Shown one piece after another: positions 35,978-43,032 of a DNA stretch of 64,000 nucleotides (its first letter is position 1; each line of letters starts with the position of its first letter). Made by a program: the position numbers and the translations under genes. The notes below the pieces were generated by a model that had not been told where the DNA came from, made no database searches, and saw only the letters and a list, made by a program, of their open reading frames with translations. This DNA is from Candidatus Rariloculaceae bacterium (GTDB lineage: Bacteria; Pseudomonadota; Gammaproteobacteria; Steroidobacterales; Rariloculaceae), in NCBI GenBank assembly GCA_045561055.1, contig JBJKYL010000010.1:198681-262680 (forward strand). The letters run 5' to 3'.

Positions 35978-37156
35978 ATGAATAGATTTTCATTTACATT
36001 TCGCCGCAAGCCCCACCGATGGTCTTGTCTGATGATCTGTTGGCTAACATGCTGCAGCGCGTTCGCTCAACCTCAACCTCAACCCGAGTCTGATGACACT
36101 AAACTAGTATTCTCGAGTCTCGAGCTTGGTCAGACGAATAATGGCACCATCAATATCAACGGCTACGACCGATATTTTTCCGTTACGTTTCCTGCCTCGT
36201 ATAACAATGACGTAGCGTCTCCAGTCGTTCTGTTTTTTCACGGTTGTATGTGTCGTCCTGATTTCACCGAGGAAGCTATTTTGGGTTATTTGGATTGGGC
36301 ACCAAGATTAGAATCGTATAAAGAAGATTTCATCACCATAAAAATGTCTGCCTTCTCCAAGAAGAAACCGGAAGTTCCCCAAGGGGTGGAAGACGGTGGA
36401 GCGCGTGGTATGTGGCTCTGGCATGAAGGTTTGGAGTCAGAGCGTGACGATTACGCGTTCGTTGATACGTTGCTCGAAGAATTACAGTCCTCGTCTGATA
36501 TCAACATTGATCCGGAAAACATCTTTGGGGTTGGTCATTCGTCAGGAGCGATCTTTTTGATCTCTTACGTATTAGGCGGCCCGGTCGATCTAACCGATGT
36601 CAGCATCAATGATACTTATCAGTTTAAAGCCATTTCCGTAACGGGAGGTTCAACGTTACGGAAGGGGATTGTCGATTTCAAAGAAAATACGCCTGACACA
36701 TTGCCATCTGTCTTACACATCCAGGGAGAGCGGGATGGAGGGCTTTGGTTTAACGGTCAAGAAACGGGTAAAAGGGGTATCAATTTCTTAGAATTTGCCT
36801 CGATCGAAAACGGGGCAGCTATCGTTGATGGATTAAGAGACACAATACACGGGCTTACATACTCTGCATGGGACGAAAATACTCCCTCAAATCCCAGTAC
36901 CCTAGAAAGATGGGCCGAGCATCTCAATCTCGAGTATTCAGGGTACGAGGAATACCTCCAATATTACGTCTATAACTTCGCGCCGGTAACAACGTCAGAG
37001 AATGTGCTCGTCGGCATGAGGCTCAAAGATTGCGGGCATAGGCTTACCGCGGATCAATATCAGTCTGATTTCTTCCGAATCTTCTCGCAGCAAAATGGCG
37101 ATTTGCGAGCGTACGACAGCAAGATATCTCGAGACACTGTTTTGAGGTTCTGCTGA
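35978..37156 (+). CDS. secreted alpha/beta hydrolase (PHB-depolymerase/feruloyl-esterase LpqC-like)
   Basis: The ORF is 392 aa with a signal peptide (CCSAFA|QPQPQP), the oxyanion-region block VVLFFHGC and the nucleophile elbow GVGHSSGA. Confidence 0.65.
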   Translation: MNRFSFTFRRKPHRWSCLMICWLTCCSAFAQPQPQPESDDTKLVFSSLELGQTNNGTININGYDRYFSVTFPASYNNDVASPVVLFFHGCMCRPDFTEEAILGYLDWAPRLESYKEDFITIKMSAFSKKKPEVPQGVEDGGARGMWLWHEGLESERDDYAFVDTLLEELQSSSDINIDPENIFGVGHSSGAIFLISYVLGGPVDLTDVSINDTYQFKAISVTGGSTLRKGIVDFKENTPDTLPSVLHIQGERDGGLWFNGQETGKRGINFLEFASIENGAAIVDGLRDTIHGLTYSAWDENTPSNPSTLERWAEHLNLEYSGYEEYLQYYVYNFAPVTTSENVLVGMRLKDCGHRLTADQYQSDFFRIFSQQNGDLRAYDSKISRDTVLRFC

Positions 37157-37197
37157 TTCCGCGGTCGAACTACTTTTGACATAAAAAGAAGGTAAGA

Positions 37198-38334
37198 ATG
37201 CATTCAAAAAGCTGGTTGTTTTTTATTTTACTTGGGATCGTTTCTTCGCCCGTTTTCCCTCATCATGGGATGGGGACCTTTAATTCCAGCGTGAATTTAA
37301 TACTGACTGGTGTTGTTAGCGACGTAGCTCTAGTCAATCCGCATGCATACGTTTATTTAGATGCAATTCTAGATGATGGCGAAGATATAGAGCCCTGGAG
37401 GTGTGAGATGCGAGCTGGGACTGTTCTTAGGCGTTCCGGATGGTCAGAAGAATTATTCTTGGCAGGTGATGCAATCACAATTGAGGGAATACCGGATCGA
37501 ACAGAACTAAATAGTTGTTATGTCGCGACCGTAAATTTTGCAGATGGCACTTCTACTGATCGATATACGCAATTGTCTGCTAGAGATACAACGATAGCTG
37601 ATAATCATGCGGCCCTAACTGCTGACGGACGCCCTAATATTTTTGGGGATTGGGCTGCGGAGCAACGCGTTAATGTTGATCCCCGGGGAATAGGGACAGC
37701 AGGTATGGGAGCTCTACTTAGCGATGTTCAGTCTGGTATGGGTATGGGTATGGGTATGGGTATGGGTGTGGGCGGAGCTCCTGGACTAAGCCCCACCGCA
37801 GCCATGCGCGGTGCGGCGGCTGATTATGTTGAAGCTAGAGATAACCCTCGGAAAAACTGTAAGCCTACCAATATATTTAATGATTGGACCTTTGATCAGC
37901 ACGTTAACCAGATCACCGAAGAAGGTGACACAATCGTGATGAAGTATGGAATGATGGACCTTATAAGGACCATTTATATGGATCAAGCTGAGCACCCTGA
38001 TAATGTTTGGTCGATGTGGGGACATTCCATTGGTCGATGGGAAGGCGCGACTCTCGTTGTTGATACAGTCGGATTTGAGCCCGGGCTGCTGAACTTCCGT
38101 ATACCGATTATGTACAGTGATCAACTTCACGTCGTCGAACGATTCAACTATGACCACGAGCGTAGAACGCTTTCTCGGACGTGGGTGGCTGAGGATCCTC
38201 TCTATTTACAAGAGGCTTATATTGGTCAAGATGAAGTTCAGGTTTCTGATTTAGCTTATGAGCCTTACGATTGCGATGATAGGGCAAAAATAGAGAATGA
38301 CCCATCATTTATGGATCGCTTATCTTCTGAATAG
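37198..38334 (+). CDS. exported His-His-N-terminus protein, paralog P1 (DUF6152-like N-domain + uncharacterised C-domain)
   Basis: The ORF is 378 aa. The signal peptide is followed by HHGMGTF...LTGVVSDVALVNPHAYVYL. It also carries a GMGMGMGMGMGVGG repeat and the C-terminal motif GHSIGRWEGATLVVDTVGFEPG. Confidence 0.7.
   Translation: MHSKSWLFFILLGIVSSPVFPHHGMGTFNSSVNLILTGVVSDVALVNPHAYVYLDAILDDGEDIEPWRCEMRAGTVLRRSGWSEELFLAGDAITIEGIPDRTELNSCYVATVNFADGTSTDRYTQLSARDTTIADNHAALTADGRPNIFGDWAAEQRVNVDPRGIGTAGMGALLSDVQSGMGMGMGMGMGVGGAPGLSPTAAMRGAAADYVEARDNPRKNCKPTNIFNDWTFDQHVNQITEEGDTIVMKYGMMDLIRTIYMDQAEHPDNVWSMWGHSIGRWEGATLVVDTVGFEPGLLNFRIPIMYSDQLHVVERFNYDHERRTLSRTWVAEDPLYLQEAYIGQDEVQVSDLAYEPYDCDDRAKIENDPSFMDRLSSE
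37735..37770 (+). repeat. hexanucleotide microsatellite (GGTATG)5-GGTGTG encoding (Gly-Met)5-Gly-Val
   Basis: This is a direct read of the sequence, lying inside the P1 coding region. Confidence 0.95.
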
Positions 38335-42095: not shown

Positions 42096-42108
42096 AATGT
42101 ACATCAGA

Positions 42109-43032
42109 TTAAACCTCATCAATGAGTACGCGCATTTTTGCGCGCTCAACTGCGTTGGGTAAACGACCGAAAGAAGCTTGTGCATTCTCGGTCATATGAG
42201 CTGGATTACTCGTCTCGGTAAATATGGTTGTAACTGTTGGGTGTGCAAGGATGTACTTCAGCGAGAACTGTGCCCAGCTATTGCAGTCGAACTCGGCGGT
42301 CCACTCGGGTAGAGGACGACCCCCGAGGCGATCGAAGTAAGCACCGTTCATGAACGGCCGGTTAAGAACCACAGCTAGTCCCATGTCAGCAGCCATCGGA
42401 AGTAGTTTTTCTTCGGCAAGTCTTTCCGTGATCGAGTAATTGATCTGTACGAAATCTGGTGTCTCGCGACCTAGGAACTCGATGAGCTGATCATAACGTT
42501 CGTGCTGCGAAACCGTTACGCCAATATAGCGCGCACTTCCCTCCATTTTCCAATCTTTGAGGTTGGGCCACTGTGTGTCGAGATCGGTAAGGCTGAATAT
42601 CTGGACAAGATCGATCGTTTCGCGTTGATAAAGTTCCTGCGTCTGTCGAAATTGTGCGATACCGGCTTCTTTGCCAACCTTGTCGATTTTGGTAGTTACG
42701 AAGAGGCTATCACGAAGGTCGGGCAGGTTGATGACTTCGCCGAAGCCACTGTCGTTTACAGGGTTACGCGGCCATGAATCGACGACGCCACCGCCACTAG
42801 CTACCAGCGCTCTTAACACTGCCGCAACTGGCCCCGTGCCGTTGTCTGAAATTTGTGAGACTACCTTGCTCGAGCCTAATCCGATGACTGGGAGCATTTC
42901 GCCTGTGCTTGGAATAGCGCGCATCGGCATTTGTTGTTGTGCGAATGAATGCACTGGCCTGAGGCTAGCAACTCCCGCGACAGAAATCATTTCCAAGACA
43001 TCGCGTCGTGTGGCCATGAATTTTTCGTTCAT
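42109..43032 (-). CDS. aldo/keto reductase with twin-arginine (Tat) signal peptide
   Basis: The ORF is 307 aa from ATG 43032, preceded by GAGGGGAG. The N-terminus MNEKFMATRRDVLEMISVAGVASLRPVHSFA|QQ has a T-R-R-x-V-L Tat motif. The AKR body has DSWP..., FVTTK and INYSITER blocks. Confidence 0.82.
   Translation of the reverse strand: MNEKFMATRRDVLEMISVAGVASLRPVHSFAQQQMPMRAIPSTGEMLPVIGLGSSKVVSQISDNGTGPVAAVLRALVASGGGVVDSWPRNPVNDSGFGEVINLPDLRDSLFVTTKIDKVGKEAGIAQFRQTQELYQRETIDLVQIFSLTDLDTQWPNLKDWKMEGSARYIGVTVSQHERYDQLIEFLGRETPDFVQINYSITERLAEEKLLPMAADMGLAVVLNRPFMNGAYFDRLGGRPLPEWTAEFDCNSWAQFSLKYILAHPTVTTIFTETSNPAHMTENAQASFGRLPNAVERAKMRVLIDEV

Follow-up and report, generated by a model that had tools for sequence, protein, structure and literature searches.

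In histidine-brace copper proteins the N-terminal histidine provides both its amino group and a ring nitrogen, and a second histidine provides another nitrogen (PMC10952591). The review of these sites covers the lytic polysaccharide monooxygenases (LPMOs), the particulate methane monooxygenase (pMMO), X325/Bim1, CopC, PmoF1, and YcnI, and DUF6152 is not among the families it covers (PMC10952591). The locus described here lies at positions 35978–43032 of the window, by which we mean the whole 64,000-nt stretch of Candidatus Rariloculaceae DNA that was analysed and to which the coordinates refer, and it contains four paralogous DUF6152 genes (P1–P4) whose products are predicted to be secreted and to begin with two consecutive histidines. 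As in the histidine-brace proteins (LPMOs of families AA9–17, the CuB site of PmoB, CopC, PmoF1/PCuAC, YcnI/DUF1775, and X325/Bim1), cleavage of the exported precursor would make a histidine residue 1, and another conserved histidine lies at a distance. However, the second histidine of P1–P4 directly follows the first, their N-terminal domain (N-domain) is a predicted oligonucleotide/oligosaccharide-binding (OB) barrel rather than an Ig-like, fibronectin-like, or cupredoxin-like sandwich, and the partner is a calycin-like barrel in place of a carbohydrate-binding or membrane module. Pfam, PDB sequence, and Foldseek searches gave no sequence or structural match of P1–P4 to the histidine-brace families.

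The locus contains seven genes, as follows.

35978–37156, plus strand: esterase-like protein, predicted secreted, 392 aa, with a G-H-S-S-G motif; 41 nt upstream of P1
37198–38334, plus strand: P1, long DUF6152 paralog, 378 aa, P1/P4 subtype with four Cys; PF19649 E = 5.9e-15 over residues 15–102
38454–39518, minus strand: P2, long DUF6152 paralog, 354 aa, P2/P3 subtype with two Cys; assigned from PF19649 and alignment
39549–40628, minus strand: P3, long DUF6152 paralog, 359 aa, tandem duplicate of P2; assigned from PF19649 and alignment
40727–40987, minus strand: single-pass membrane protein, 86 aa, between P4 and P3; assigned from the reading frame and composition
41064–42095, minus strand: P4, long DUF6152 paralog, 343 aa, with four Cys; PF19649 E = 2.9e-24
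42109–43032, minus strand: aldo/keto-reductase (AKR)-fold protein, 307 aa, with a twin-arginine signal; PF00248 E = 5.4e-19; 13 nt upstream of P4

A sequence-only reading of the window had given these seven open reading frames (ORFs) the same coordinates and strands, all of which were borne out. P1–P4 are real paralogs, alignable over the whole of their length. The N-domains of P2 and P3 share 67% identity and their C-terminal domains (C-domains) 80%, and the two are evidently recent duplicates; every other pair is 23–33% identical. The same reading had named DUF6152 as the family of the N-terminal part and proposed an additional domain beyond it. Both proposals are correct because PF19649 scores above its gathering score of 27 bits in each protein (P1, 55.6; P2, 66.7; P3, 65.2; P4, 85.4) and matches only residues ~15–103, the remaining ~200 aa having no Pfam model or PDB sequence match. 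P1–P4 thus belong to a catalogued family without an assigned function (a Pfam DUF, annotated at NCBI as 'DUF6152 family protein'), and an NCBI protein titled 'MAG: DUF6152 family protein [Candidatus Rariloculaceae bacterium]' has the same sequence as P2 (100% identity). At 343–378 aa they depart from the single-domain size of DUF6152 proteins (~120–190 aa); the short proteins have the same A|HH...NPH arrangement, and those of the window are about three times longer.

The alignment agrees with the proposed division into two subtypes, P1/P4 with four Cys and P2/P3 with two, and the motif G-[HY]-S-x-G-x-x-E-G-x-T-L-V-[VI]-D-T is present in all four proteins. Several motif details required adjustment. 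The four cleavage-site strings reported for P1–P4 are real but belong to P2, P3, P4, and P1, in that order, P1 having VFP|HHGMGTF; the [IL]-x-G-[VI]-V block begins with V in P2; the L-[KR]-R-x-G segment reads Q-R-R-K-G in P2 and P3; and the Cys-containing segment described as common to P2 and P3 is not shared exactly, P3 differing slightly and reading RCIGPGMPSLMGNPYPMRI.

In P1 the predicted signal peptide spans residues 1–21, His22-His23 are encoded at 37261–37266, and the NPH motif is at residues 47–49. In P2 the signal peptide spans residues 1–24 and His25-His26 are encoded at 39446–39441, with the OB-fold N-domain at residues ~25–125 and the beta-barrel C-domain from ~130 to the C-terminus. 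His22-His23 are encoded at 40565–40560 in P3 and at 42032–42027 in P4, whose N-domain spans residues 22 to ~125 (42032–41721) and whose C-domain spans ~146–343 (41660–41067). A 99-sequence alignment identifies the family-invariant residues, in P4 numbering, as H22, H23, G39, N48, P49, H50, G81, G90, W152, P194, C198, D231, R234, G252, S254, E291, and C336. C198 and C336 probably form a disulfide within the C-domain, and P1/P4-type proteins have a second Cys pair in the N-domain (C69 and C107). The interdomain linker of P1 contains (GM)5 encoded by a perfect hexanucleotide repeat, (GGTATG)x5, at 37735–37764 on the plus strand. The length of this repeat is polymorphic, the GM run being shorter in an 87%-identical relative (P0121, in locus L052). 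Met-rich linkers occur in only 2 of 374 long homologs and were rejected as a family-wide hint of Cu(I).

The HH pair directly follows an AxA-like signal-peptidase site, 24–27 residues before NPH, in 367 of the 374 long homologs. In a hidden Markov model (HMM) alignment of 481 N-domains, fused and stand-alone, H1-H2 is invariant in all 460 sequences that cover these columns and P28-H29 in all 465, with Pro-His lying 25–27 residues after HH and every exception being a truncated sequence; position 27 is Asn in 454. This invariance extends to the stand-alone short proteins and to family members as little as ~25–30% identical. The sequence-only reading had placed HH at the mature N-terminus, and these counts uphold it as a sequence-level prediction, export being judged from n-, h-, and c-region composition together with conservation. 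The predicted placement of HH at the processed N-terminus is far beyond chance, and the free alpha-amine seems to matter because two residues are fixed exactly there. The three histidines and the alpha-amine are predicted to form a metal site of some kind, which we consider somewhat more probable than any use of these residues without a metal.

An AlphaFold2 model of full-length P4 built from the 99-sequence alignment has a mean predicted local distance difference test score (pLDDT) of 89.1 and a predicted template modelling score of 0.83, and a model of the mature P2 N-domain has a pLDDT of 90.2. The modelled N-domain has the classical OB topology, b1-b2-b3-helix-b4-b5 (DSSP on the model: E13-25, E28-36, E42-51, H52-57, E70-78, E84-91). 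Its best PDB neighbours by Foldseek are the lysyl-tRNA synthetase (LysRS) N-domain, PriB, and SSB (E ≥ 2.6e-3, template modelling (TM) scores 0.5–0.7). Mean-field couplings recover the strand pairings of the OB fold and, with a weak signal, place residues 3–9 beside strand b5 and residues 31–35 just after Pro-His (pairs 8-31, 6-35, 8-32, and 3-33 rank 10, 11, 34, and 37 of ~4,300), lending weak support to a position of the N-terminus near the Pro-His turn.

The C-domain is modelled as three short helices followed by a beta-barrel of ~10 strands, and it carries an invariant G-x-S-x-G...E-R signature. The best matches to it in the PDB are CRABP2, FABP5, and CRBP1 (E 5e-4 to 1e-2, target-normalised TM 0.55–0.63), which are likewise up-and-down barrels of ~10 strands with short helices. 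It differs from them in the position of the helices, which come before the barrel, in being exported, and in having an invariant Cys pair. A Pfam scan of 63 C-domains (E ≤ 1) returned only scattered noise and no lipocalin-type family, a C-domain profile had no match among PDB sequences, P2 gave nothing useful against PDB sequences, and Foldseek found no match among viral structures. A composite hydrolase has to be weighed here, in which the serine of a C-domain G-x-S-x-G motif and an invariant Asp/Glu would be joined by a histidine from the N-domain, which would explain the constant pairing of the domains. Whether the domains are fused or split, G252-x-S254-x-G256, D231, and E291 vary little or not at all, no histidine of the C-domain itself is invariant, and the N- and C-domains are obligately paired. 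However, the motif starts a beta-strand in the model, with no strand-turn-helix nucleophile elbow, a triad histidine needs no processed N-terminus, and the proteins have no likeness to any hydrolase fold, such that this arrangement is highly improbable.

Two further periplasmic proteins invite comparison. ZinT (YodA) is a periplasmic zinc- and cadmium-binding protein with a His-rich mature N-terminus and a calycin/lipocalin-like barrel, and thus resembles the family in its location, its N-terminal histidine, and its beta-barrel. However, ZinT has only one domain, and its site of three histidines is part of the barrel, whereas in the family the histidines belong to an OB domain distinct from the barrel, which itself lacks any invariant histidine; the ZinT family gave no match among the Pfam results for window proteins (E ≤ 0.1), and there are no zinc-uptake genes nearby. 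CusF, a periplasmic chaperone for Cu(I)/Ag(I) with an OB fold, binds metal through His-Met-Met together with a Trp on the face of the barrel and acts together with the CusCBA efflux system. The N-domain resembles it as a small periplasmic OB fold, metal binding being a feature of CusF. CusF is absent from the 50 N-domain Foldseek matches listed, all of which are nucleic-acid-type OB folds, and no efflux genes are nearby.

The fusion of the two domains is not special to this locus. When 1.84 billion cluster representatives (50% identity clusters) were searched with a profile built from the four paralogs, 669 clusters of full-length type matched at E ≤ 1e-30, the count rising to 8,247 at E ≤ 1e-10 and to 20,977 at E ≤ 1e-3. 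The 669 clusters make the long form a common architecture and no peculiarity of the locus. Genomic matches are in metagenome-assembled genomes (MAGs) of Rariloculaceae, Arenicellaceae, Steroidobacteraceae, other Gammaproteobacteria, Rhodospirillaceae, Vicinamibacterales, other Acidobacteriota, and Gemmatimonadaceae, with further matches on plasmids of cultured Sphingomonadales. The family is abundant in marine, sponge-associated, and soil Gammaproteobacteria and in Sphingomonadales, Acidobacteriota, and Gemmatimonadota, and one 4.4-Mb chromosome has at least 15 family ORFs at three loci.

Elsewhere the two domains are encoded by separate neighbouring genes. In the split form a short DUF6152 gene (121–189 aa, with A|HH...NPH) adjoins a gene for a 215–290-aa protein homologous to the window C-domain (BLASTP E 1e-10 and 4e-19). 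The stand-alone C-domain proteins have their own signal peptides and a recurrent D-[LI]-S-G-x-W start corresponding to P-N-L-S-G-P-W152 in P4. Among 121 ORFs encoding N-domains, C-domains, or fusions (all loci and the window, with one duplicate locus removed), a C-only gene on the same strand lies no more than 90 nt from 15 of the 25 N-only genes and often overlaps the N-only gene, the order being C-then-N in 10 pairs and N-then-C in five. A plasmid of Croceibacterium atlanticum 26DY36 (NZ_CP011453.2; locus L050, 8506–12705) carries a split module in which two DUF6152 genes are followed by that of a C-domain 'hypothetical protein' (profile E 1.4e-31; the three are WYH_RS16165, 16160, and 16155), and then by genes for a TonB-dependent receptor (WYH_RS16150) and a MarR regulator. 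On a Novosphingobium humi KACC 19094 plasmid (locus L051, 7075–8363), the gene for a C-domain protein (E 2.4e-28) is followed by a DUF6152 gene and then by one for a TetR regulator. The P1–P4 genes are fusions of a two-component secreted module, since the same domains occur elsewhere as separate, adjacent, individually secreted proteins in either order, and this fusion and fission is strong evidence that the two domains work together. The C. atlanticum cluster is also flanked by two G8-domain proteins.

The genomic neighbourhoods of homologs were compared at 40 loci of up to 21 kb each and at nine further loci; 36 of the genomic loci were found with a P2-type alignment and are therefore biased towards P2-type relatives. 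An NHL/SGL-type beta-propeller gene is directly adjacent at seven loci, and an arylsulfotransferase-like protein of ~520 aa adjoins P2-type genes at L004, L016, L018, L019, L020, L021, and L025; at L003 three consecutive arylsulfotransferase-like gene fragments (6351–7946) lie ~2 kb upstream. TonB-dependent receptor genes are found within two genes at L004, L019, L022, L026, L027, L038, and L045 and on the C. atlanticum plasmid, mostly directly downstream and on the same strand. Other recurrent neighbours are additional members of the DUF6152 family, sulfatases, Amidohydro_2 proteins, short-chain dehydrogenases, glyoxalase-fold proteins, BD-FAE/DLH esterases, amidases, and Fer2 plus MoCoBD aldehyde-oxidoreductase gene pairs. 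Neighbouring regulators are of the MarR, TetR, LysR, AraC, GntR, OmpR, or ECF/FecR types. The Fer2 and MoCoBD pairs, together with the AKR of the window, hint at a link with periplasmic aldehyde or ketone metabolism. A long DUF6152 gene is followed by such a pair (aldehyde oxidase/IorAB-type) at L001:5786-9802 and in a JGI contig with P0395, from different MAGs.

Some observations at these loci stand apart. A protein family of ~490–540 aa with no Pfam match is encoded directly upstream of a long DUF6152 gene at four loci in MAGs of Rariloculaceae and other Gammaproteobacteria (L027:8352-9824, L028:3-1115, L029:7804-9417, and L030:8399-9907); its identification as arylsulfotransferase-like was rejected (hhalign probability 0.1). 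At L033 the P2 ortholog is split into two overlapping ORFs (9776–10660 and 10629–11048), which reflects either a frameshift or pseudogene or an assembly error.

The favoured reading is that the family has a histidine-brace-like metal site on an OB fold which, with a ligand-holding barrel, takes part in the periplasmic handling of small organic compounds; we put its probability at about 0.4. Signal peptidase would expose His1, making its free alpha-amino group and imidazole available, and His1, His2, and the histidine of the invariant Pro-His 25–27 residues downstream would form the site, with copper the most likely metal. The metal centre would act together with the barrel, which would hold a small organic ligand, and the module would be a periplasmic oxidising or ligand-capturing component in the uptake or processing of small organics such as phenolic, sulfated, or esterified compounds. 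Interchangeable partner enzymes and TonB-dependent receptors would work alongside it, the partners in this window being the esterase-like protein and the predicted Tat (twin-arginine translocation)-exported AKR-fold protein, and the many paralogs per genome would correspond to different substrates. The sequence-only reading had also suggested periplasmic processing of a substrate, an inferred role that fits the kinds of neighbours seen elsewhere; the organic-substrate theme is a reading of a diffuse neighbour set and not a genome-wide enrichment statistic.

The principal rival is that the family captures or traffics metal. The HH/PH site would bind Cu, Zn, or Ni, imported by the adjacent TonB-dependent receptor, and hand it on in the manner of a periplasmic metallochaperone or scavenger such as CopC, YcnI, CusF, or ZinT. 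CusF shows that a periplasmic OB fold can be a copper chaperone, and ZinT combines a His-rich N-terminal tail with a calycin-like domain. The invariance of three histidines, the Met-rich (GM)5 linker of P1, and the TonB-dependent receptor genes lying directly downstream or within two genes at seven metagenomic loci and on the C. atlanticum plasmid can all be counted in its favour, and most non-LPMO histidine-brace proteins are tied to copper transport (PMC10952591). However, copper, zinc, or nickel homeostasis genes and metal-sensing regulators were not seen in ~50 loci, at least 15 paralogs per genome would be unusual for a chaperone, and the P1 linker has a Met-rich counterpart in hardly any homolog. 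NCBIfam typing of the adjacent TonB-dependent receptors gave only generic sub-threshold matches, below the threshold of every curated metal or siderophore subfamily and with none to the copper-receptor model, and metal trafficking leaves the conserved barrel partner with no obvious role. A role with organic compounds is preferred over metal homeostasis on the grounds of how many paralogs there are, which types of regulator adjoin them, and which enzymes are encoded nearby, and trafficking seems unlikely.

A non-metal carrier is judged slightly less likely again. The barrel, possibly together with the OB domain, would shuttle a hydrophobic or anionic small molecule among outer-membrane receptor, periplasmic enzymes, and inner-membrane transporters, and the histidines would touch the ligand (e.g. 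an oxyanion or sulfate ester) and not a metal. The FABP/CRABP-like barrel is consistent with this, as are the nearly invariant N-domain arginines R57 and R80, the adjoining genes for TonB-dependent receptors, TRAP/TAXI transporters, and MFS transporters, and the recurrence nearby of sulfatases, arylsulfotransferase-like proteins, sulfotransferases, TauE, and sulfite-oxidase-like enzymes. Yet two histidines held exactly at the processed N-terminus across a family with members only ~25–30% identical are difficult to account for unless the free alpha-amine plays a part, which is a hallmark of metal sites, and paralogs that each recognise a different ligand would hardly be likely to retain the same contact triad.

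Several observations weigh against the favoured reading of a metal site acting with a ligand-holding barrel. To our knowledge, histidine-brace proteins all have beta-sandwich or cupredoxin-like folds and never an OB fold. Proline is unusual at position -1 for signal peptidase I. P1 has this residue at its predicted cleavage site (VFP|HH, 37258–37266, plus strand); its 87%-identical relative has ALS|HH, and P1 may be processed inefficiently or cleaved differently. The first ten mature residues of the P2 N-domain model have a pLDDT of only 74, and the coupling analysis is weak, with an effective sequence number of 251 and confounding by subfamily structure. The resemblance of the C-domain to CRABP/FABP is also weak (rmsd, i.e. 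root-mean-square deviation, 6–7 Å; 9–12% identity). A conserved N-domain joined to a variable C-domain was considered and rejected: mean pairwise identity is 44% for N-domains and 41% for C-domains, and because the two diverge alike there is no sign of a conserved centre with a variable pocket. Finally, the neighbour set is diffuse, with 105 Pfam families among 133 neighbours, and sulfatases and TonB-dependent receptors may just be common in these lineages generally.

The sequence-only reading had gone further in proposing that the seven genes (hydrolase, P1, P2, P3, membrane protein, P4, and Tat-AKR) constitute one extracytoplasmic pathway for a single substrate. The tight spacing described for the minus strand is real, with intergenic gaps of 13, 76, 98, and 30 nt and no internal terminator found; all seven products have signal-like or transmembrane N-termini, and purine-rich, Shine-Dalgarno-like stretches precede most of the start codons. 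Promoter and terminator scans of the locus are uninformative about operon structure because they found fewer sites than in shuffled controls. Part of the order recurs: L011 keeps the AKR gene, a long DUF6152 gene, and a P2-like gene in that order, L033 keeps the membrane protein, a long DUF6152 gene, and a P2-like gene, and L052 has the only other hydrolase–P1 pair. However, at L024 an unrelated gene separates the AKR and P2-like genes, and all four loci are from close relatives, the flanking CitMHS and quinone-oxidoreductase genes of L011, L024, and L033 being 75–89% identical to those of the window and the hydrolase and P1 of L052 being 91% and 87% identical.

Beyond such relatives the arrangement dissolves. 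Among the 40 homolog loci the hydrolase gene is found at none, the AKR gene at two (L011 and L024), and the membrane protein gene at one (L033), and among all loci examined the full set of seven is present only in the window. Co-occurrence of the accessory genes with long DUF6152 genes therefore stands for close relatives and fails for more distant loci. P4-type and AKR homologs at 51–82% identity are in different contexts. P4-type homologs at 51–67% identity lie either between TRAP/TAXI transporter genes, with a sulfatase gene two genes away, or beside genes encoding a TonB-dependent receptor, a metallo-beta-lactamase-fold protein, and a two-component system. In three AKR-homolog contexts a DUF6152 gene is 2–6 kb away in two, adjacent in none, and not within 8 kb in the third. 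The seven-gene set is at best a lineage-specific arrangement and not a conserved pathway, and one dedicated pathway for a single substrate is improbable.

The locus is flanked by unrelated genes for a CitMHS/TrkA-C transporter, a quinone oxidoreductase, a ferredoxin reductase, and DUF4340 plus ABC-2 transporter components. Related MAGs share some of these, with a quinone-oxidoreductase gene in L033 and a CitMHS gene in L009, L011, and L039. Two rightwards ORFs of 261 and 226 aa at 29337–30799 (plus strand) have no Pfam match; the 226-aa ORF has homologs of 225–227 aa in L009, L033, and L039, and the same block contains a ferredoxin-reductase-like gene (30888–32111). Insertion of the DUF6152 block between CitMHS and AKR genes, which are adjacent in L047, was considered and dropped, as the gene order there differs and the transporter is shorter.

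The product of 35978–37156 had been called a secreted alpha/beta hydrolase; its signal-like N-terminus and G-H-S-S-G motif are present, and the assignment rests on that motif, as no curated family threshold is reached (Abhydrolase_6, 14.2 bits against 26.3; type-1 PHA (polyhydroxyalkanoate)-depolymerase model, 26.7 against 150) and there is no match among PDB sequences. The 86-aa protein has a basic N-terminus, one hydrophobic helix, a Pro-rich C-terminal tail, and no Pfam match; its only homolog among the loci (70% identical) is in L033, at the same position directly upstream of a long DUF6152 gene.

The AKR scores 68.8 bits with PF00248 (threshold 24), and its proposed Tat-type signal is well founded: it has a twin-arginine T-R-R-D-V-L, and RR-x-[FVLIAM]-[LIVM] is kept in 114 of 120 homologs, the other six consisting of five N-terminally truncated sequences and one with RRDFF. 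The catalytic tetrad Asp-Tyr-Lys-His is incomplete, with Asp and Lys kept and the other two replaced, His by Phe (alignment to 1ynp) and Tyr apparently by Asn (alignment to E. coli DkgA). Because of the conserved motif and these two replacements, it is best described as a conserved, predicted Tat-exported, non-canonical AKR-fold protein. Its relatives form more than 120 clusters at ≥66% identity, all of ~306–307 aa; a D-S-W-P-R-N segment is conserved in the 120 homologs (D-S-W-P-R-N-P in the protein family), and together they look like a distinct exported subfamily. At L048 and L049 an AKR homolog lies beside a sulfite-oxidase-like Mo enzyme and a cytochrome c.

The N-domain was already known as a Pfam DUF, and its proteins are named accordingly at NCBI. 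What is new is the recognition of the second domain as a separate, widespread, and uncatalogued family, the fusion/fission link between this barrel and DUF6152, the absolute N-terminal HH/PH signature on an OB fold, and the recurrent partners. The family is very large, with at least 15 copies in one genome, and no published study of it was found: searches of a literature library returned no paper that mentions DUF6152 or PF19649 or that links an OB fold, N-terminal histidines, or the periplasm to the family. The cultured hosts C. atlanticum 26DY36 and N. humi KACC 19094 are candidate experimental systems. DUF6152 could represent a new class of amino-terminal-histidine metal centre on an OB fold that, with its obligate barrel partner, constitutes widespread periplasmic copper-dependent oxidative enzymes whose targets would be small organic molecules of phenolic, sulfated, or esterified type, in many cases at a step after TonB-dependent import, although in this full form we regard the proposal as doubtful. 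If the metal hypothesis is true, the histidine-brace chemistry of LPMOs, pMMO, and CopC would gain the OB fold as a new scaffold. If it fails, the family would still be a recurrent partner of TonB-dependent receptors and of arylsulfotransferase-like and beta-propeller enzymes, and would bear on the uptake and processing of organic matter by these bacteria.

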